A program made the translations under genes and the position numbers. Source: a virus. Taken from it: 64,000 bases of DNA. The stretch spans positions 1 through 64,000 of IMG/VR virus record IMGVR_UViG_3300005466_000026. The stretch is one strand, 5' to 3'. This document shows, one piece after another, positions 40,624-49,563 of the stretch. How positions within the stretch are numbered: position 1 is the first letter of the stretch; every line of letters begins with the position of its first letter. The notes below the pieces were generated by a model. That model saw nothing but the letters and a program-made list of their open reading frames with translations, ran no database searches and was not told the origin of the DNA.

Positions 40624-41582
40624 GTCTCCGCCTCCCACGCGCGGTCTATCAGGTGATGCTTCTCGTCGCTCGGGTTCCACTCGTAGAGTGTAGCGACCCA
40701 CTCCTGCATCTTCTCCCACTCGTGACGATTGGCTTCTTCCTGAAACTTCGGGAAGTACTCTCTGGCGCCGAGAGGACACAGAGCGATCTTGACGACGTAC
40801 AAGTTACCCTGCGTCGGCTTGAAGTCGTACAGACTGCGGATGAGCGCGGGCGGCTCTCCGAACTTCGGATCGCACACGCTGGCCTCTAGAACCCACAGAG
40901 GACCGACTCTTCTGAACCACGTCTCGATGTGCATCTGCGTGAATACGTTGTTGATCACGTCGTCGGTCATCACCCACGGAGCCAGCGACTCGTGCTGCCC
41001 GCCGTCCTCAGGAGTACCGATGACTCTCTTGTCGTCGAACGGTGGTTTAGAGTACGCGTCCACCGACTCTACGCTGGTGTCGCTGTTCCAGACCTCGCTC
41101 ATCCTGCGAGCCTCCTCCGCAGTCAGCCGAGGCGCGACGATGATCTTCTTCTCTCGCTCCGGCAGCACCGCGCCGCGCGAGATCATCTCGGCCTCGATCA
41201 GCGTGGCGTAGCGCCGCAGGTCCCGGAGGCAGGCTAGAACGCTGCCGTCCTTGCCGCTCGGGTCGTCGTGTATCTTCTCGAAGACGTCCTCCTCGCTCAG
41301 CTTCTGCACCATCCACTCGGCCAGCTCGTGAGACAGCGTGTACTCCTTGTCCGGGTCCGTAGCTACGTCCTGAAGGTCCTCTCGGCTGAAGCTCTCCGGC
41401 CACGGCACGGAGGCCATCATGTTCAGCAGTCGGTCCATGTTCCTGCGAAACATGAACCACGCGCTTCGTCCACCGGCCATCTTCCAGCTTCCCTGATAGG
41501 TGGCCTCCTTCTCCCTGAGCAGCATGACGTCGCTGTCGGCGACGCGCTGCAGATGCTCCAGATGCTTCATGTCGTGGCTCAT
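40620..41582 (-). CDS. Nucleotide-modification-associated domain protein (Nmad1-like N-terminus)
   Basis: 'LREKEATYQGSWK..GG...FM..RNMDRL' and 'DLRRYATLIEAEM' resemble this family in hmU phages; adjacent to HD and TS-like genes. Confidence 0.55.
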   Translation of the reverse strand: MSHDMKHLEHLQRVADSDVMLLREKEATYQGSWKMAGGRSAWFMFRRNMDRLLNMMASVPWPESFSREDLQDVATDPDKEYTLSHELAEWMVQKLSEEDVFEKIHDDPSGKDGSVLACLRDLRRYATLIEAEMISRGAVLPEREKKIIVAPRLTAEEARRMSEVWNSDTSVESVDAYSKPPFDDKRVIGTPEDGGQHESLAPWVMTDDVINNVFTQMHIETWFRRVGPLWVLEASVCDPKFGEPPALIRSLYDFKPTQGNLYVVKIALCPLGAREYFPKFQEEANRHEWEKMQEWVATLYEWNPSDEKHHLIDRAWEAET

Positions 41583-42085
41583 GATATCTTCACTCCCTTC
41601 ATCCACTCGTCGACCTTGACGTACTGATACAGCTCGTCCGCCATCTTGAGTGCGATCTCTCTGGTGTCGCGCATGGGTATTGCGGCGTACTGATTACCCA
41701 TCATGAACTCGTGAAAGCAGAACTCGTACATCTCCAGCAGGTCGCAGATCTTGAACCGCTTCCACTCGTCCTCTCGCATCTGCGGCAGCTCGATCTGCTG
41801 ATGACCCAGACCCAGTCTCTCGGCCTCGTTGACAGCCGCGCCGTAGCCCTCGACTCGGTGCTTGCCGCCGAACGGAACGTCGCCGGCGAACTGCTCTCCC
41901 ATGTCGTGATGCAGGCAGTAGTAGAGAACCTCCGCGCGAGGAATACCGAACACCTCGCAGTAGATCTGCGCGACGCGACCCTGATGCTCGATCACGTTCG
42001 GCTTTCGCAGAGTCGGCCAAGTGTGCCATCGCGCCACCTGACCGGCTAGATGCCTTGATCTGTAGACTTGATCTCTAGTAACCAT
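41579..42085 (-). CDS. HD-domain 5'-deoxynucleotidase (YfbR-like)
   Basis: 'RW...EH', 'HHDMGE...GDVP...K', 'KICD.LE'. Confidence 0.85.
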   Translation of the reverse strand: MVTRDQVYRSRHLAGQVARWHTWPTLRKPNVIEHQGRVAQIYCEVFGIPRAEVLYYCLHHDMGEQFAGDVPFGGKHRVEGYGAAVNEAERLGLGHQQIELPQMREDEWKRFKICDLLEMYEFCFHEFMMGNQYAAIPMRDTREIALKMADELYQYVKVDEWMKGVKIS

Positions 42086-43237
42086 TCACATCCTCCTCGT
42101 CATCCACTCGGTGCACGCCACGCGCCAGTCCTCTGACTGGATCTCGTTGGCTGCAGCCACCGCTCTTATCTTCTGGCCGTCTCTCCACAGACGGTGCGAC
42201 CGAACAACCGGCTGAGCAACCTCGCAGAACCAGTCGTTCTCGCAATGTCTCAGAGGTACGTCGCTCTCTGTTCGGTAGCACTCGTCGTGCCACGACATGA
42301 ACTCGATGACGTCCTCGTCGGCCTTCTCTCCGACCGTGAATACCGGGCGCGTCTTCAGCCGAAGAGAGAAGTACCTGTCGTCGTGCAGGGCGCCGACTAT
42401 GCTGCTCTCCTCCTTGGCCATTCGCTTGGTCATAACGCCGAGCATCGTCTCGTACATGTGAAAGTTGTTCGAGAGAACGTACAGATCACCCATCGCCACG
42501 CCGACGCGAGCAGCCAGATACTCCTGCAGAAAGCTGAAGTGCACCGAGTTCGCGCCGTAGAGTCCCCAGACGATGTCGTTACTGCGGCAGCACACCGTCA
42601 TGTCCAGAACTCTGTTCCCCTTAGATATGACCACGCCGTCCGGCCAGTGATCTGGACCGTCTCCGCGCACTCTGAGATAGATGTGCGTGTTGCACGGTCT
42701 GTCCTTCCACTCGCCGGTGAGGTCCAGAGCGCCGACCTCCTGCTCGCCGACGTTGCCGTTACCCAGACTAACGGGCAGCGTGACGCTGGAGCAGTCCCAC
42801 ATCTGGATGACGCACTGACGCGTCCCCGGGTCCTTGATCAGCCGATCCACGACCGCTCCCAGCTGATCAAGTCCGAAGCGGAAGCGCCATCGGTGTCCGT
42901 ACGCTCCGTGGATCTGACCCCCGGCCTCCCAGTTCGCGCTCCCGCTGGCGCTCTCGGCGAACCGCTGGCCGAAGTCCGTCACGTAGTGGTTCAGCGTCTC
43001 GGCGTCGTCCCTGCCAGCCAGCATCCAGATGGCCTCCACGACGTGAAAGAATGGATTGGCATCTCTCACCTTGCTGAAGACCACGCGCTCCCACGGTCTC
43101 TTGAGGCGCGTGACGACGGGACCGGGGGCGACTAGGCAGGGACCCGCCCGAGTCTTCTCGAGCAGGCCGGAGTTGATTAGCAGGTGCACTCCCTTCGGGA
43201 GTGCCGCCGCTGAGTTCGTGGTGTCGATGACGTGCAT
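42086..43237 (-). CDS. Thymidylate synthase-fold enzyme, probable dUMP hydroxymethylase
   Basis: 'RDANPFFH..E..WMLAG', 'GAYGHRWR', catalytic 'PCN', 'RSNDIVWGLYGAN' (Asn at the specificity site means dUMP), 'NNFHMY'. Confidence 0.85.
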   Translation of the reverse strand: MHVIDTTNSAAALPKGVHLLINSGLLEKTRAGPCLVAPGPVVTRLKRPWERVVFSKVRDANPFFHVVEAIWMLAGRDDAETLNHYVTDFGQRFAESASGSANWEAGGQIHGAYGHRWRFRFGLDQLGAVVDRLIKDPGTRQCVIQMWDCSSVTLPVSLGNGNVGEQEVGALDLTGEWKDRPCNTHIYLRVRGDGPDHWPDGVVISKGNRVLDMTVCCRSNDIVWGLYGANSVHFSFLQEYLAARVGVAMGDLYVLSNNFHMYETMLGVMTKRMAKEESSIVGALHDDRYFSLRLKTRPVFTVGEKADEDVIEFMSWHDECYRTESDVPLRHCENDWFCEVAQPVVRSHRLWRDGQKIRAVAAANEIQSEDWRVACTEWMTRRM

Positions 43238-43253: not shown

Positions 43254-43532
43254 TCAGAACGGTATCTCGTCGTCGTCCACCTCGGTGCGGCGTTTGCCGC
43301 CTCCGAAGGACGGCTTGTCGTCGCCGCTGCCGCTGCGCTCTGCGCGCTCCTTCGGCTCGAACAGCATGATAACTATCTTGTTCTCCTTCTTGGGGTCCGG
43401 GACGGGGACGCTGTCCAGGTAGATAGTGATCTGTCCCTTGTCGTTCTGGTGAGCCTGTCCTACTCGGTGCCACCAGACACCGTCCTCGTTGTACTTAGGT
43501 CTCGGAGTCATCGCGTCGTATCTCTTCGGCAT
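43254..43532 (-). CDS. Small OB-fold-like protein with an SSB-type acidic tail
   Basis: 'W.RVG.A...KGQITIYLD..P'; C-terminus DDDEIPF. Confidence 0.6.
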   Translation of the reverse strand: MPKRYDAMTPRPKYNEDGVWWHRVGQAHQNDKGQITIYLDSVPVPDPKKENKIVIMLFEPKERAERSGSGDDKPSFGGGKRRTEVDDDEIPF

Positions 43533-43974
43533 GTGGCTGTCCCTTGAGATAGAGTTCTTCCAGCAGTATCGCCGCCAGACCCGCGCACTCTGGATCGTTG
43601 TACCAGCGGCACAATCCAGAGGGATGAGGTAGCTGCCGCCATGTGCATCCGTTCATCTGAACAGGGTGAATAAGTATCTTGGGGAGCTCCAGTGCACTGC
43701 GCACCTGCTCCCCGAACACGACAATGGTACGTCCGGCGTAGAGCGAAGGAAAACGCTCCGCCGCTGCCTTGGCCACCGGCCTGCTCCACGTTCTGGAGTT
43801 GATCAGGTTGAGCCGCTCGAAGCCGTCCATGTATCCCTTTCGCGTGACCTGCGGCTGGCGCGTCTGCAGAAGCCTCCAGAGACGGTAGCCGCTGCTCCCG
43901 GACGGGAACGGAGCGAGCGCGTACCTGGGATCCGCCGACAGCGGATTGTTCATTCCCAGCAGTACGGCCCTCAC
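43495..43974 (-). CDS. Uracil-DNA glycosylase superfamily protein
   Basis: 'LLGMNNP', 'SG.RL', 'IVVFG', 'LPHPSG...WYN'; GTG start overlapping the upstream stop. Confidence 0.65.
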   Translation of the reverse strand: MRAVLLGMNNPLSADPRYALAPFPSGSSGYRLWRLLQTRQPQVTRKGYMDGFERLNLINSRTWSRPVAKAAAERFPSLYAGRTIVVFGEQVRSALELPKILIHPVQMNGCTWRQLPHPSGLCRWYNDPECAGLAAILLEELYLKGQPHAEEIRRDDSET

Positions 43975-44519
43975 ACCAGATTGAGCCACCGAAACACCTT
44001 CGCGAACACCTGCTCGCGGGATCCTAAAAAGCATTCCACCTTCTCCTCTTGAAAGTCGTAGTAGTGTCTGCGACTCTTTCTGTGCAGCGCCTCGATAGTC
44101 TTCTCCTGGATCTTGTGACCGCGCTCACGAACGGCCTTGACGCAGTCCTCCAGAGGCTCGTCTATCAGGGCGACCGCTATCGGTAGTCCGGCGTCCCGAA
44201 GATCGAGCAGGTTCTGTGGCTTGTCGGTGAAGTTCTTTCCCTCGTAGAGCACGTTGCATCCGAGCTCCAGAGCGTGGATCCTCATCAGTTCGTACGCCAG
44301 CGGTAGACTAGGCAGCGTGTCCAGTCCGCCGTTCGCTATCTCGTAGTGTCCGGGAACGTACAGATGCTTCTCGTTGATGTTGTTGTGAGTCAGGATGTAT
44401 CCGGCAGGCTTCTGTCTGCCGGGATACTCCAGCTTGCGGCTCACCGGATAGAAGGACATGATCCTGCGGACCAGATGCGACTTGCCCGCGCCGTTCGTTC
44501 CCAGGAGACTGATTATCAT
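43971..44519 (-). CDS. P-loop nucleotide kinase of the 5-hmdU DNA kinase type
   Basis: Walker A 'GTNGAGKS', 'G.Y....GGLD', 'VLYEG', 'C...V.ER'. Confidence 0.7.
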   Translation of the reverse strand: MIISLLGTNGAGKSHLVRRIMSFYPVSRKLEYPGRQKPAGYILTHNNINEKHLYVPGHYEIANGGLDTLPSLPLAYELMRIHALELGCNVLYEGKNFTDKPQNLLDLRDAGLPIAVALIDEPLEDCVKAVRERGHKIQEKTIEALHRKSRRHYYDFQEEKVECFLGSREQVFAKVFRWLNLV

Positions 44520-44893
44520 GAGTGCTGATCCAGCTGACTGATCTCGTGCATGTTCGCCAGCGCGAACTCTCGACGGTCCTTCTTGTCCATGTCGTAGCAC
44601 ATCAGCAGCCACTGAGGAGTCTCGTACCACTCGCTGGTTCCCCACCGCACGCTGATGGGATTAACTGTTCGCCAGCTGAACGAGCCGCGATAGTTGACGT
44701 AGCTGAAGCGAAGAGTCTGCGTCGGCCGAGCCTCGTCCTGATGCATCTCCAGTATGCGAGCCAGCGCGGACAGATGATTGGTCGCCGAGGTGATCACCTC
44801 TCGAGCTCCCGTGTAGGACCATGCCGGATGCTCGCGACATAGCCTCTCGATGCTGGCGGCTAGATCTCTCAGGCTATGCTTCTGCGCTGGCAT
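44516..44893 (-). CDS. Stand-alone WYL-domain protein
   Basis: 'FSYVNYRG...RTVNP......W..PQWLL.CYD.DK..RREFAL'. Confidence 0.75.
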   Translation of the reverse strand: MPAQKHSLRDLAASIERLCREHPAWSYTGAREVITSATNHLSALARILEMHQDEARPTQTLRFSYVNYRGSFSWRTVNPISVRWGTSEWYETPQWLLMCYDMDKKDRREFALANMHEISQLDQHS

Positions 44894-45953
44894 CGTCGCC
44901 TCCTCTGGGTCCCTGATAGGCTGGCACCGGCTCGCGATCCTTCCACGGCAGACGCACCACCTTGTCGCGCTGACCATGCGAGAGAGCCTCCTGGATGTCT
45001 GCCGCCGTCTGCGCGTCGGGCTTGTGCAGCTTGCCCTGACCCATCAGGTCCGGAAGCAGGCCGACGCGATAGCTGCGATGATTGCACCCTCGGCACGGCG
45101 TGAAGTCGCGCTCGCCGCGTATCAGCTTCTCCCTGGCGGCTCCCATCGCGTCGCCCTGCCACAGCTCACCGATGTTGGTCTCGTTCGTGTTGCCCACGAA
45201 GTACGGACTGTCCCACGTGTTGCAGCACAGAGGAACGTTGCCGTCCCAGTGAATGGCGATCTGCCTGAACGGATGATGACACCGCTTGCCTGCCATACTG
45301 TCGTCGGGCGCGAAGGCGAGGCCAGCGTAGTTGAACACCTTGCCGTGATTGCCAATCTTCTTGTCGGCCGCCTGCGACGCGAGATCCCGTATCTTCACCA
45401 GCGTCCTCGTGCCCGGTCTTCGGCGCTTGTGCGGGTTCCCGCGAATGTCCCGCGGATAGTCGTAGTAGGTGAAGCCAAGAGGATGCTTGACGCCCGATCG
45501 CAGCTTGCCCTTCTCCTCGATGGCCGCGATGACCTTCTCCACGAACTTCACGTTCTCGTAGTCGTCCAGCCCGAGGACGCTGACGCCAGCGTCGAACAGC
45601 GCTGTCACGTTCACCACCGGACCCGGCTTCCTGAGTAGTCCCCCGGCGTTGGTCAGCATCGTGATGTGCGCCTTCGGCAGACACTCGCGAGTGGCCGCCA
45701 TCATCCCCACGTAGTCCGGATGCATGGTGGGCTCACCGCGCATGGCGAAGCCGACGCGACAGTTCCAGCCGAGAGCTCTCACGTCCGTGAGCGCCTTGAC
45801 CAGCGTCTCCTTCTTCATGAACTCGTATCCCTTGCCCTGCTTCTCCTGTATCGCGGAGACCGCGCAGAAAGGACAGTTTAGATTACAGCCGCGCGTCAGC
45901 TCCAGCGTGACGTTGAACGGGGGTTCCTGAGTACGGTATCTTCGGCGCGTCAT
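44874..45953 (-). CDS. Radical SAM enzyme with SPASM/twitch domain
   Basis: CxxxCxxC 'CNLNCPFC', 'GEP', 'TNA'; 'C..PF...I.WDG.V.LCC...GN...W', 'C..C'. Confidence 0.9.
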   Translation of the reverse strand: MTRRRYRTQEPPFNVTLELTRGCNLNCPFCAVSAIQEKQGKGYEFMKKETLVKALTDVRALGWNCRVGFAMRGEPTMHPDYVGMMAATRECLPKAHITMLTNAGGLLRKPGPVVNVTALFDAGVSVLGLDDYENVKFVEKVIAAIEEKGKLRSGVKHPLGFTYYDYPRDIRGNPHKRRRPGTRTLVKIRDLASQAADKKIGNHGKVFNYAGLAFAPDDSMAGKRCHHPFRQIAIHWDGNVPLCCNTWDSPYFVGNTNETNIGELWQGDAMGAAREKLIRGERDFTPCRGCNHRSYRVGLLPDLMGQGKLHKPDAQTAADIQEALSHGQRDKVVRLPWKDREPVPAYQGPRGGDDASAEA

Positions 45954-46900
45954 AGGTTCTTCTCCAGTCTGTTGTAGGCCTCTAGGACCTTGTCCTTCAG
46001 ATCTCGCTTCTCGCGAGCAGCCTTCAGCCACCATCGGTCCTGCTGCTCCTTCAGTATCTCTGCCCGTCTGGACATCCTGCGCTGAACGGAGGCCGCGTTG
46101 CTGACCAGGAAGTCTCCTGGGTCATAGCCTGCCTTGCGCAGCGTGTAGCCCGCCTCCTCCTGGAACACCATAGGAAGTCCGCCGCTGAGCATCTCGTAGA
46201 AGCGGTTGGGAGGCGAGTGGAAGTTGCTGTGCGACTTGGCGTCCTCGAGATAGAGGCCGAGGCCGTGCCGTCCCAGCTCGGAGTGCAGATCCTCTATCTT
46301 CTTGACGTGTCGCACGTTGGGTCCGTTGTACTTCTGCTCGAACCGACTTGTCGGCGAGGAGATGGTTATGGGCAGCGACGGACTGTTGAAGAACTTGTCG
46401 AACGCCTTGGTTCGGCCGGCTCGGAAGCTTCCGTAGTAGAAGAGGTCTCCGGCGTCCTTCTTATTCAGAGGCGGCTTCTCCTCCTCGAACCCCAGAGCGT
46501 TCCAGTTTATCAGCGAGCTGAGAGTCGTGAGCTTGCTCTCCCTCTCGCAGGTCGTCCAGAACTCCAGGTGCGACTTACCCGCCTTGCGTCGGTCGACGAA
46601 CGCCTTGCGGAACGGCGACGTAGCGTCGCCGTCGTTGATGGGCGGAACTATGGTGTAGTCCTGCTGTATCCAGACGATGCGCCTGACGCCGCGTATGGCG
46701 TGCGACAGCGGCTCTAGATGCTTGCAGAAGGCGTATGCCCCGTTCACTATGAAGAGGACGTCCGCCGTCTTGTAGAGCTCAATGGTCTCGTCGTCCACCA
46801 GCGGCAGGTCCAGCGTCTTGCTGAGAAAGAACGCCGCCTTGACCGACGCGACCATCGACTTCTCGCTGCACGCTATGAAGCTGAATATGGCTGCCTTCAC
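45950..46900 (-). CDS. T4 beta-glucosyltransferase-like DNA glycosyltransferase (GT-B)
   Basis: Colinear similarity with T4 BGT as recalled: MKAAI~MKIAI, DVLFIVN~DRLIVVN, DLFYYGSFRAGR~DVIYGGSFRSGQR, NRFYEMLSG.LPMVFQEE~LRVWETMASDAVMLIDEE, FLVSN~FYVNN. Confidence 0.75.
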   Translation of the reverse strand: MKAAIFSFIACSEKSMVASVKAAFFLSKTLDLPLVDDETIELYKTADVLFIVNGAYAFCKHLEPLSHAIRGVRRIVWIQQDYTIVPPINDGDATSPFRKAFVDRRKAGKSHLEFWTTCERESKLTTLSSLINWNALGFEEEKPPLNKKDAGDLFYYGSFRAGRTKAFDKFFNSPSLPITISSPTSRFEQKYNGPNVRHVKKIEDLHSELGRHGLGLYLEDAKSHSNFHSPPNRFYEMLSGGLPMVFQEEAGYTLRKAGYDPGDFLVSNAASVQRRMSRRAEILKEQQDRWWLKAAREKRDLKDKVLEAYNRLEKNL

Positions 46901-47106
46901 GTCTCACCTCTCTGCTTCTGGAAGTCCCTGACTTGGTTAATTATCCTCTGCTTCGCGCCCGAAGCCAAGTTCTGAATGGCTCTCTGCTGCCAGCACGTGG
47001 GATCTCGCGGCGGCAGATGCGAGACGTAGTCTGCGTAGCTGAGAACGTCTCCGTAGTCGGAGTCCGTGTCCCGAGCGATCTTGAGAAGCGGATAGCTGGT
47101 GCTCAT
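46897..47106 (-). CDS. Hypothetical protein
   Basis: 69 aa, coupled on both sides by 4-nt overlaps. Confidence 0.55.
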   Translation of the reverse strand: MSTSYPLLKIARDTDSDYGDVLSYADYVSHLPPRDPTCWQQRAIQNLASGAKQRIINQVRDFQKQRGET

Positions 47107-47717
47107 CTTCGGTCCATTCTCAGGACGTGCCAGCCTGCCTCGAAGATCGGCACGTCACCCGTGATCTTGAAGCCGCCGCGACTGATCATGGCCAGGAACT
47201 TCTTCCTGTCGTGCTCTGCCGTGTTGCTCTTCAGCACGTACTTGTCGCCGAAGCGTATCGTGCAGATGATGGACCTCTTCGCGAGCTTCATGAAGCCCCT
47301 CATGGCCGCCTGCATGGAGGGCTCGTCGATGAGGTCCAGGAACCGCACCGCCACGATCACGTCGGAGGGTGGCAAGCCCTCCAGCTTTCTGGCGTCGCCG
47401 ACCTGCAGGACGTAGGACGGCGGCACCTTCTTGTTCTTCAGCTTCCCCTTAGCTATGGCGAGCATCTGCTCCGAGGAGTCTACGCCCGTAACGGTGGCCA
47501 CGCTCAGCTGATGATACAGATAGAAGAACCTGCCGGTTCCCACCGGGCAATCGATCACGGTCTGCGGCCTCAGCTCGGTGAGCATGTCCTCGACCGCCGC
47601 GTTCTCCTCGCCCCATCGTATCTGCTTCTTGCGCTTGGCCTCGTAGCCGCTCGCCATCTTACCGCGATACTTTCTCGCGGTCCTGTCTCCCAGATTGAAT
47701 GCCGCAGATGGTCTCAT
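47103..47717 (-). CDS. Class I SAM-dependent methyltransferase (small-molecule type)
   Basis: 'VIDCPVGTGRF', 'GVDSSEQML', 'GDA', 'DVIVAVRFL'; no DPPY/NPPY or m5C 'PC' catalytic motif. Confidence 0.85.
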   Translation of the reverse strand: MRPSAAFNLGDRTARKYRGKMASGYEAKRKKQIRWGEENAAVEDMLTELRPQTVIDCPVGTGRFFYLYHQLSVATVTGVDSSEQMLAIAKGKLKNKKVPPSYVLQVGDARKLEGLPPSDVIVAVRFLDLIDEPSMQAAMRGFMKLAKRSIICTIRFGDKYVLKSNTAEHDRKKFLAMISRGGFKITGDVPIFEAGWHVLRMDRR

Positions 47718-47912
47718 CTATCTCCTCCCCTTGCTGTCGAAGACTACTCTTCCGGTTGATCTCTCGAAGCACGTGACCGCCGCGCTGCTGTTTCTAGCCA
47801 TCGCGCCCACGAACTCCTTGCAGGCTTCCTTGCTGTCGAACTTGACCTGCTTCGGCTCCTCGCATCCGAGGAAGCTGCAGAACGTTATGAGTACGAAGAA
47901 TGGACTTTCCAT
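47718..47912 (-). CDS. Small Cys-containing hypothetical protein
   Basis: Hydrophobic N-terminus, 'F.S.EAC' motif. Confidence 0.45.
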   Translation of the reverse strand: MESPFFVLITFCSFLGCEEPKQVKFDSKEACKEFVGAMARNSSAAVTCFERSTGRVVFDSKGRR

Positions 47913-48691
47913 GTCACTTCTCCTAATTGCTGCTTCATCTTCATGCCTTTATTCCACGGTTCTCGTCCTTTCATTGCGGCACTCATTTTTGCACGAGACT
48001 CAAGAGTGTGCTTCTTACCTTTTCTCTTCGACGGTTTTCCTTTCTGTGCTGCGCTCATCTTAGCTCGAGACTCAGCTGTATGTTTCCGACCTGCTATCCA
48101 GGGAATTTGACCCTTATGAACATCACTCATCTTTTTTCGGTGCTCAGGATTTTCCCACGCCTTCTTGATTAAATCTTTCAATATGATTGAGCCTCTCTCA
48201 CGATAATCAGGATCTTTCCATCTTTCTTTTGACTCTCTTCTCATTTTATTCGCTTGGCGCTCTCGATACTCTGGATCTTTCCACTGCTCTTTTAATTGCC
48301 TTGTCATAGAAGCACTCCTACGCTCACGAAATTCAGAGGACTCCCATAGCTTCACGACTGCTAGTCTCATTGCTTCACGTGAAGCTTCTCTGGAGATAGC
48401 GTATTGCCAGCTAGAGCATGGTCTGCCTTGAGTCATTCTACTGAGTGCACTCACCATCTGATGATGTGCTCTGCCATCAAGAATAAATTTAGTCAAGAGC
48501 CAGTGTGCCAGAAAATGTTCTCGATAGGTCAGTGAGACCAAGTTCTCTGAGCTGTTATACCAGCTCGGATCTCCGCCGAAACTTCTAGGGTTTCGGTGAT
48601 GTCTCTCGTAACGTACTCCTGGTTCGCGCTCGCGGCTCGCGGCGCGATCCATGATCTGCGTGTACCAGAGACGATACTTCTCAGTGCTCAC
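47885..48691 (-). mobile_element. Free-standing HNH homing endonuclease with NUMOD3 repeats
   Basis: 'YERHH..PRSFGG...ENLVSLT.REHFLAHWLL'; repeated 'GRKHTAESRAKMSAA', 'PWNKG'; markedly AT-rich. Confidence 0.85.
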
Positions 48692-49563
48692 GCGAACACT
48701 CCTCTTGGTCTGCCCTCGCCGTTCCTGACTCTCTCGTACTTGTCGAACTCGCAGAGCGTGTGCTCGACGTCTCGCATCTCCCACTTGGGCCACTGCCTCG
48801 GCCAGTTGCCCGGACTGCAACTGGCCGCGAGGATCAGCTGCATCTCCTCCAGCATCTTGGGCACCCTGACGCTCTTATCCTTCTTGTTCCTGCCGTGTAT
48901 CCGGTTCAGTCCGCGCCTCGCCCCCGGTCCCACGTTGCACCAGCTCATGATGTCGTTCGCGTCGCAGAGAAGGTTGGTGTGCCGCAGGTCCGTGACTATC
49001 TCGTACGAGTGAAATGTGCCGAGCCACGGCTGCATCTTGAACCAGAGCCAAGCCGTCTGCAGAGACATCTTCTCCTTAATCATCTGCTTGGCAGCGTCCC
49101 TCCATCCGCTCTCCTCTCTGAAGTTCTTCAGGATCTCCAGGATCCCGTCCAGCTTGGTGAAGCCGGGGGGAGAGGTTATGATGTACGCTCCGGTGACGTA
49201 GGGGCCGTCACCGCAGATCGCCTTGACGTCCTTCTTCATGCGTCGCAGGTCTCCGGTCTGCAGGAACACCGCGAAGGCGTTGTTCTTGTCGAAGTCCAGG
49301 TGATTGAAGATGGCCTCTCCCGTGCTGATCCTGTTGAACATGCGGAACACGACCGTGGCCAGTAGCACGTCCGGCGAGTCTCTCATCTCCTCCCTCACGT
49401 TGCGTCGGAACCAGTCAGTGGTCTTGTCCAGCTCCCGGAAGACGTTCGTGAACCTGTACTTCTGCAGGATCGGGTCCCTCGTCAGGGACGACTTCCCCTC
49501 CAGACGGTTCAGGTACACCTGATGTCGCTGCCTCGCGTAGTTGAAGAAGGACTGCATCGTCAT
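48688..49563 (-). CDS. aGPT-Pplase1 / 5-hmdU DNA kinase helical-domain protein
   Basis: 'DPILQKYRFTNVFRELDKTT', 'FRMFN', 'TGAYI', 'G.F..YE..TDL', 'GPGARRGL', 'VEH.LCEFDKY.R'. Confidence 0.85.
   Translation of the reverse strand: MTMQSFFNYARQRHQVYLNRLEGKSSLTRDPILQKYRFTNVFRELDKTTDWFRRNVREEMRDSPDVLLATVVFRMFNRISTGEAIFNHLDFDKNNAFAVFLQTGDLRRMKKDVKAICGDGPYVTGAYIITSPPGFTKLDGILEILKNFREESGWRDAAKQMIKEKMSLQTAWLWFKMQPWLGTFHSYEIVTDLRHTNLLCDANDIMSWCNVGPGARRGLNRIHGRNKKDKSVRVPKMLEEMQLILAASCSPGNWPRQWPKWEMRDVEHTLCEFDKYERVRNGEGRPRGVFA

Follow-up and report, generated by a model that had tools for sequence, protein, structure and literature searches.

A BtrN-like twitch-domain radical SAM family associated with viral DNA glycosyltransferases and its putative role in thymine hypermodification

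In a 64,000-nucleotide stretch of DNA from an uncultured phage (positions 1–64,000 of the IMG/VR virus record IMGVR_UViG_3300005466_000026; hereinafter the window), which covers part of a record of 85,774 bp estimated to be 99% complete, we identified a gene for a radical S-adenosylmethionine (SAM) enzyme, P0001, whose start codon overlaps the stop codon of a gene for a glycosyltransferase (GT) with a T4 β-glucosyltransferase (BGT)-like fold. As far as computation can take the matter, P0001 typifies a new and apparently virus-restricted family of radical SAM (rSAM) enzymes with a BtrN-like twitch domain, whose members partner DNA glycosyltransferases. We propose, with confidence that stands about evenly balanced, that these enzymes work alongside the DNA glycosyltransferase as its tailoring partners within a pathway for thymine hypermodification. 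Below, we lay out the sequence, structural and genomic evidence bearing on this proposal and weigh it against the alternatives.

P0001 is a twitch-domain radical SAM enzyme related to BtrN

P0001 displays both of the features that define the radical SAM superfamily, namely the CxxxCxxC motif (C23/C27/C30) and the partial TIM-barrel core, the latter seen as an alternating β/α core in an AlphaFold model (predicted local distance difference test score, pLDDT, 87.1). The Pfam Radical_SAM model (PF04055) matches residues 18–106 with 44.9 bits (cut-off 29.5) and the Pfam SPASM model residues 225–291 with 46.5 bits (cut-off 21.5), the latter match covering the shared half; as both scores exceed their cut-offs, the domain matches are not due to chance. 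In an alignment of 27 family members reaching down to 45% identity, the three cysteines of the CxxxCxxC motif are invariant. The SAM-binding GGE-type motif of the radical SAM core is represented by an RGEPT stretch, which aligns to FYGEPL of BtrN and in which G73 and P75 are invariant and E74 is at least 90% conserved. The C-terminal region features a further five invariant cysteines (C225, C243, C244, C287 and C290). A full SPASM domain is characterized by a seven-cysteine pattern including CX2CX5CX3C and two auxiliary clusters; given just five C-terminal cysteines and no CX2CX5CX3C block in P0001, we rejected this assignment. Its C-terminal domain is, by its sequence, a one-cluster twitch domain, alignment with BtrN supplying the four cysteines for a single auxiliary cluster. 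Thus, where a preliminary description of this DNA had posited CxxxCxxC together with a twitch/SPASM cysteine set, the motif and the twitch domain are retained and the full SPASM domain is not. The NCBIfam model N_Twi_rSAM also matches the twitch region (E 3.8e-11), below its own cut-off; no model in the NCBIfam scan of P0001 came near its cut-off.

When all PDB chains were searched with a profile built from the 27 sequences, the first hit was BtrN (the 2-deoxy-scyllo-inosamine, or 2-DOIA, dehydrogenase of butirosin biosynthesis; PDB 4m7t/4m7s), with both domains matched (4m7t; E 6.3e-21), followed by an anaerobic sulfatase maturase (E 3.6e-7). A fold search with the P0001 model likewise placed BtrN first (E 7.3e-13; TM 0.78–0.82 on the BtrN length), with the next match at E 1.9e-7; the sactipeptide and other SPASM enzymes trail it by five to six orders of magnitude, and the sugar-acting enzymes SpeY, DesII, AbmM and BlsE, as well as EpeE, were also among the fold matches. 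BtrN is therefore the top solved structure by profile and by fold alike, in keeping with the earlier suggestion of a BtrN-like twitch enzyme. The two proteins share a radical SAM core followed by a one-cluster twitch domain. C169, C187, C232 and C235 of BtrN, the only cysteines in its aligned stretch, pair with C225, C243, C287 and C290, so that all four auxiliary cysteines are accounted for, and N151 and G154 of BtrN pair with the invariant N208 and G211 of an N-x-x-G stretch preceding the twitch domain. BtrN converts an alcohol group of an aminocyclitol into a ketone, with its auxiliary cluster, ligated by four cysteines (Cys4), thought to act as an electron carrier (PMC10337720). By analogy, P0001 may be a BtrN-type dehydrogenase, which would oxidize a secondary alcohol by two electrons using SAM as co-substrate. 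The differences are nonetheless substantial: identity in the structural alignment is 17–18%; P0001 is about 100 residues longer, with a 107–205 stretch carrying an invariant YPxDxxGNPHxR; it displays a conserved C-terminal extension, SYRVGLLPD...W337, and an extra invariant cysteine giving a CC pair where BtrN has C-F; and it is viral and paired with DNA glycosyltransferases.

The stretch comprising residues ~107–205 lacks an aligned counterpart in BtrN and includes GNPHKRRRPG (residues 172–181), which had initially been taken for a basic insert. The sequence is indeed present; however, G172, P174, H175 and R177 do not vary among the 27 members and N173 is retained in at least 90% of them, which makes it a signature of the whole family rather than a lineage-specific insert. 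Y166–P167 and W337 are also invariant in the same alignment. One family member, P0126 (623 aa), is interrupted by an intein in which Pfam recognizes an HNH domain and which is situated exactly between the two cysteines of the CC pair (N-extein ...SIC, intein CLAGD...VHN, C-extein CNDW); its location at this invariant pair marks the site as functionally critical.

The radical SAM family is linked to DNA glycosyltransferases by fusions, neighborhoods and gene junctions

The gene immediately upstream of that for P0001 has no match in Pfam, PHROG or NCBIfam, and all 285 relatives of its product are unnamed or labeled 'hypothetical'. A model obtained from a 27-row alignment (pLDDT 93.2) displays the two-Rossmann GT-B fold, and Foldseek searches with it returned T4 BGT entries at ranks 1–5 (E 1.3e-10 to 1.4e-8; TMq 0.67–0.72), ahead of Gtf3/GtfC and the T4 α-glucosyltransferase. 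These results agree with the initial identification of the neighbor as a BGT-like DNA glycosyltransferase; its predicted substrate is DNA containing hydroxymethyluracil (hmU). The coordinates also bear out the overlap that had been noted between the two genes: the ATG of the rSAM gene (45953–45951) overlaps the TGA stop of the transferase gene (45952–45950) as ATGA, seen on the plus strand as 'tcat' at 45950–45953. A GGAGAA stretch lies ~8 nt upstream of this start. A longer rSAM open reading frame (ORF) could begin at 46034, but the start at 45953 is the right one because the homologues begin at MTRR(K/R)YR.

Three independent lines of evidence, namely domain fusions, gene neighborhoods and gene junctions, establish that the link between the rSAM family and glycosyltransferases is real. 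First, two proteins, P0131 (588 aa) and P0143 (579 aa), combine an N-terminal TAGT domain (PF20691) with a C-terminal rSAM module of the P0001 family. A third, P0141 (709 aa), has a 390-residue N-terminal part with a sub-threshold GT4 hint (E 0.021), which we regard as a lead only; this part showed no relation to the BGT-like GT and gave a weak hhalign match (probability 36%) to c17, a cluster of neighboring proteins discussed below. A search for longer fused rSAM forms gave no match at E ≤ 1e-10, although the 709-residue P0141 exists among the representatives, so that this negative carries no weight. Separately, in P0194 (534 aa) the rSAM module is fused to a C-terminal part (~325–534) with a sub-threshold hint of PIG-L (N-acetylglucosamine deacetylase; E 0.3); if true, it would be another link to sugar chemistry, though it, too, is a lead only.

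Second, we collected 67 distinct viral loci encoding the rSAM family by means of a degenerate-pattern scan of IMG/VR and classified their genes with hidden Markov models (HMMs) built from these loci. TAGT is encoded in 46 loci and a BGT-like GT in 18, with either in 62 and both in 2; two further clusters, c53 and c36, are related to TAGT (hhalign 97–98%), and the former adds one more locus (L066), bringing the glycosyltransferase count to 63 of 67 (a Pfam match of a single representative, E 2.8e-19, served to check the identity of the TAGT cluster). A thymidylate synthase (TS)-like gene is found in 61 of the 67, a PF18723 gene in 55 and a kinase of the window type in 15. The association persists upon dereplication at 90% identity, with TAGT or a BGT-like GT in 48 of 53 clusters and a TS-like gene in 50. 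Hence, the co-occurrence with GT genes anticipated in the preliminary description holds, as underscored by the TAGT-rSAM fusions, and homologues lacking a glycosyltransferase neighbor, which that description had named as grounds for refutation, amount to no more than four exceptions: in two (L016 and L067) the rSAM gene is cut at the start of the locus, in the third (L028) the contig ends ~40 nt after the rSAM gene, and in the fourth (L047) the neighbor is the unclassified c17. The latter cluster, a neighbor in 10 loci, showed no hhalign relation to the BGT-like GT or TAGT and matched Glycos_transf_1 with an E-value of just 0.11; we therefore left it out of the count of 63 and included it as a candidate GT in the junction count.

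Third, we compared the gene junctions of 66 loci, with start sites chosen by a crude procedure of our own. In 38 of them, an ORF for TAGT, a BGT-like GT or the candidate GT c17 terminates within 90 nt on the upstream side of the rSAM start. Among these 38 junctions, 33 overlap (11 of them by 4 nt, in the ATGA/GTGA manner) and 4 have a gap of at most 20 nt.

The dependence between the two enzymes runs in one direction. When the GT alignment was used for the converse scan, 58 viral loci were recovered, of which only 22 have an rSAM gene within 6 kb, 44 a PF18723 gene and 41 a TS-like gene. Relatives of the window's GT that are 44–57% identical to it occur in the same cassette without an rSAM gene (L075, L077, L078 and L083). 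The clearest instance is L075 (4,125 nt), which encodes PF18723, a 57% identical GT, the kinase and TS, with ~200 nt between the GT and kinase genes that leave no room for an rSAM gene. As the transferase does not depend on the rSAM enzyme, and the latter almost never occurs without a transferase, the pattern is that of an optional downstream step; the rSAM enzyme thus looks like an optional tailoring activity dependent on the transferase.

The window itself is a less common variant. A cassette of TAGT, rSAM, PF18723 and TS, devoid of the kinase, recurs among the loci L017–L068, whereas the window has a BGT-like GT-B transferase instead of TAGT, as do only 18 of the 67 loci; it also retains the 5-hydroxymethyldeoxyuridine (5-hmdU) DNA kinase of the PaMx11 gp49 type, which is found in 15 of these 18 loci. 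In three TAGT-rSAM loci (L039, L044 and L062) we also observed FkbM-type methyltransferases (PF05050, c52; E 8.8e-8 for L044:6234-6953), members of a sugar O-methylating family.

The family is well populated and appears restricted to viruses

A word-indexed search recovered 261 relatives of P0001, mostly of 300–375 aa and encoded on contigs of up to 92 kb, and an exhaustive search of cluster representatives recovered 5,700 proteins (E ≤ 1e-3), with 816 left under a limit of E ≤ 1e-10 and 106 under one of E ≤ 1e-30. The nearest ESM Atlas clusters are 97–100% viral. A pattern-based scan of the genomes of 185,579 species, itself of limited sensitivity, yielded a single locus, situated on a 58-kb contig of a metagenome-assembled genome, and tblastn of P0001 against 50,697 GenBank phage records returned no match; consequently, no cultured carrier is known among those records. 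PF18723 homologues are found in 141 GenBank phage records, none of which has an rSAM of the P0001 family. Judging by these searches, the family seems to be virus-restricted.

The rSAM and glycosyltransferase genes lie in a probable thymine hypermodification cassette

Along the minus strand the genes are arranged in the order exonuclease, PF18723, HNH-type ORF, methyltransferase, a 69-residue ORF, GT, rSAM, WYL, P-loop protein, phrog_12275, TS-like enzyme and HD nucleotidase, followed by DNA polymerase, all in one direction (Table 1).

Table 1. Cassette genes and associated features; coordinates refer to the window
Feature	Coordinates	Strand	Remarks
HD/YfbR-like nucleotidase	41579..42085	minus	family matches
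Thymidylate-synthase-fold enzyme, probable dUMP hydroxymethylase	42086..43237	minus	Asn in GLYGAN
phrog_12275 protein	43495..44034	minus	PHROG match
P-loop kinase, homologue of the 5-hmdU DNA kinase PaMx11 gp49	43971..44645	minus	38% identity, E 2e-25
WYL-domain protein	44516..44977	minus	PF13280, E 6.5e-5; phrog_3715
Twitch-domain radical SAM enzyme P0001	44874..45953	minus	359 aa; CxxxCxxC, auxiliary Cys, YPxDxxGNPHxR at 166–177
GT-B glycosyltransferase, fold closest to T4 BGT	45950..46900	minus	316 aa; model and Foldseek
Small ORF between methyltransferase and GT	46897..47106	minus	69 aa; only in two near-identical contigs and own locus L007
Class I SAM methyltransferase (UbiE/Methyltransf_25-like), optional cassette member	47103..47717	minus	PF13649, E 1.7e-10
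Polymorphic insertion with HNH/NUMOD-like ORF (47885–48820), outside the pathway	47925..48687	minus	absent from L002
PF18723 (HMUDK_hel) protein	48688..49563	minus	homologue of PaMx11 gp50 (43%), not of gp46

In thymidylate synthases and related hydroxymethylases, an Asn versus an Asp tells a uracil from a cytosine substrate. The window's TS-like enzyme has the Asn (GLYGAN) where the CMP hydroxymethylase MilA has Asp, which, under this rule, points to uracil and hence hmU. The kinase is homologous to PaMx11 gp49, a 5-hmdU DNA kinase (PMC8989533 Table 1); its true start is probably internal, as the similarity to gp49 begins at residue 44. The cassette thus resembles the PaMx11/M6 clusters in its gp49-like kinase, gp50-like PF18723 protein, TS-like enzyme, HD protein and downstream DNA polymerase, and departs from them in that the BGT-like GT, rSAM enzyme and methyltransferase stand in place of the gp46 transferase, the FAD lyase gp47 and the acetyltransferase gp48 of PaMx11. 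TAGT was looked for in this genome and not found. The counterpart of the PF18723 protein in phage M6, gp55, is dispensable for the reconstituted M6 reaction, according to PMC8989533.

The remaining genes are more sporadic. Homologues of the methyltransferase occur in 7 of 68 loci and those of the WYL protein in 4 of 68, the window's own locus being counted in each case. As listed, the WYL ORF shares 104 nt with the 3′ end of the rSAM gene. Its true start is probably internal, and a start at the Met of MPAQK... would reduce the overlap to ~23 nt. In the contig L002, whose flanks are 95–97% identical to those in the window, 42 nt replace the 763 nt of 47925–48687, and L001 has the insertion; the HNH/NUMOD-like ORF that it carries is probably a homing endonuclease lodged inside the modification operon, between the PF18723 and methyltransferase genes.

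A proposed sugar-tailoring reaction and its alternatives

We propose the following sequence of reactions. The TS-like enzyme would generate 5-hydroxymethyl-dUMP, resulting in hydroxymethyluracil in the phage DNA. The BGT-like transferase, co-produced with the rSAM enzyme by virtue of the ATGA overlap, would then add a sugar to the hydroxymethyl group. At the CxxxCxxC-bound cluster of the rSAM enzyme, SAM would give rise to a 5′-deoxyadenosyl radical that removes a hydrogen atom from one of the carbons in the DNA-linked sugar. Finally, the auxiliary cluster held by four cysteines would accept the second electron, as in BtrN, yielding a keto-sugar (−2 Da). If the enzyme does tailor the DNA-linked sugar, we would assign roughly half of the probability to such an oxidation, about a fifth to epimerization and the rest to other radical sugar chemistry. 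In radical SAM epimerases, a cysteine functions as hydrogen donor. An epimerization, the main alternative chemistry, could draw on the extra invariant cysteine of the CC pair in this role; its product would be mass-neutral, so that a mass comparison seeking −2 Da would alone miss it.

Several points weigh against the proposal in this form. P0001 is not a BtrN orthologue, since Tyr209 takes the position of BtrN R152 and the protein has ~100 additional residues, and its chemistry may accordingly differ. In the minimal cassettes consisting of PF18723, TAGT, rSAM and TS (e.g., L027 and L029), there is no reductase or aminotransferase for processing a keto-sugar, so that the pathway would have to stop at the ketone. 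Since PF18723 and TS-like genes co-occur with the rSAM family about as frequently as GT genes do, co-occurrence by itself does not suffice to identify the sugar as the substrate; moreover, the neighborhood counts depend on ORFs called by crude means and on HMMs derived from the same loci. None of the characterized close structural relatives, BtrN (acting on 2-DOIA), SpeY and DesII, has a polymer as its substrate; all of them act on small molecules, which a priori favors a nucleotide-sugar substrate, and neither the fusions nor gene adjacency tell action before transfer from action after it.

The last two points lead to what we consider the foremost alternative, albeit an unlikely one: the rSAM enzyme would modify the nucleotide-sugar donor (e.g., a UDP-hexose) prior to transfer, and the GT would then place the unusual sugar on DNA. 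The fusions with a GT and the translational coupling would be equally suited to passing the product of the rSAM enzyme on to the GT. The one-sided dependence described above weighs somewhat against such a role, because the closely related GTs encoded in rSAM-free versions of the cassette would have to use a different donor. Further, enzymes tailoring nucleotide-sugars are usually shared with polysaccharide clusters, whereas this family is nearly absent from cellular genomes, and we saw no other nucleotide-sugar genes in the cassette.

A second alternative is action on the base or a non-sugar adduct via the kinase/PF18723 branch, be it a rearrangement at the 5-methylene, formation of a C–C bond or a sugar–base crosslink. 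Here, the precedent is gp53 of phage M6, a glycinyl-thymine isomerase that is spore-photoproduct-lyase-like with its cysteine motif at residue 125 (Lee et al., 2021; PMC8989533) and that is the only published rSAM enzyme installing a DNA modification. Like P0001, gp53 is encoded in a 5-hmdU-based thymidine hypermodification cluster beside a 5-hmdU DNA kinase, and the window retains a homologue of this kinase; the frequencies of PF18723 and TS-like genes noted above would also be consistent with an analogous role acting on a thymine adduct. However, gp53 works with an amino-acid:DNA transferase (aGPT-Pplase2) and a pyridoxal-phosphate-dependent decarboxylase, whereas P0001 possesses a twitch domain and has glycosyltransferases as its partners. 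This difference in family, together with the lack of any tblastn match for P0001 in the phage records, led us to reject an M6-type isomerase identity, in line with the distinction drawn in the preliminary description. A search of this genome with a single sequence, which is a weak test, found no gp46-type amino-acid:DNA transferase. Moreover, window-type kinase genes accompany far fewer of the rSAM loci than GT genes do, the direct fusions are with a GT, and the PF18723-bearing phage records lack the rSAM family. Taken together, these observations render action on the base or an adduct quite improbable.

That the enzyme is unconnected to DNA modification and sits in the replication module by chance, as a maturase of peptides or proteins or as a nucleotide-modifying enzyme akin to viperin, is hardly credible: P0001 has weak N-terminal matches to PADLOC pVip (E 1e-4, 19.8 bits, residues 15–103) and to many SPASM peptide maturases, but these span only the common rSAM core and fall far below the family cut-offs (for NCBIfam viperin_w_prok, 18.7 bits against 180), on which ground we rejected the viperin reading, and the position between the GT and the TS/kinase genes is conserved, in addition to the GT fusions.

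Implications for the diversity of viral DNA modification

We found no paper tying a radical SAM or twitch-domain enzyme to DNA glycosylation; the supplementary neighborhood figures of Lee (2021) and Pyle (2023/2024), which could show the family, were not opened. PMC8989533 lists unspecified 'rSAM enzymes' among metagenomic gene combinations and mentions glycosyltransferases 0 times. The text of Pyle et al. on virus DNA glycosyltransferases (bioRxiv 2023.12.21.572611) is devoid of the terms 'radical', 'rSAM' and 'SPASM'; its section 9 refers to 'annotated viperins (pVip)' near GT/ThyS pathways. We conjecture that some of these pVip calls beside phage GT/ThyS pathways are members of the P0001 family mislabeled by automated defense annotation.

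The systems based on T4 BGT, on TAGT (PF20691) and on base J (the glucosyl-hmU of kinetoplastids) resemble the one presented here in that a 5-hydroxymethylpyrimidine in DNA is glycosylated, the window's GT sharing the BGT fold and most loci of the rSAM family using TAGT instead. They differ in that they end at glycosylation or polyglycosylation; we found no description of a radical SAM partner for any of them. As far as is known, glycosyltransferases need no further enzyme to produce the sugar modifications of DNA described to date.

Whether restriction, CRISPR and type IV defense succeed against a phage is decided by the hypermodifications of its DNA, which are also a source of DNA-labeling enzymes. 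Against this background, a well-populated rSAM family that appears virus-restricted and is tied to DNA glycosyltransferases would add a new layer of chemistry, the radical tailoring of DNA-bound sugars. The GT and rSAM enzyme constitute a directly testable pair, for which relatives without the rSAM gene, such as L075, offer natural controls. It is possible, though we place it somewhat short of an even chance, that P0001 is the first radical SAM enzyme to edit a sugar attached to DNA, whereby a base-J-like glycosyl-hydroxymethyluracil would be converted on the polymer into a base bearing a keto-sugar or rare epimer; occurring in a clade whose DNA would also be the substrate of a 5-hmdU kinase and a methyltransferase, this would represent an uncatalogued type of thymine modification.

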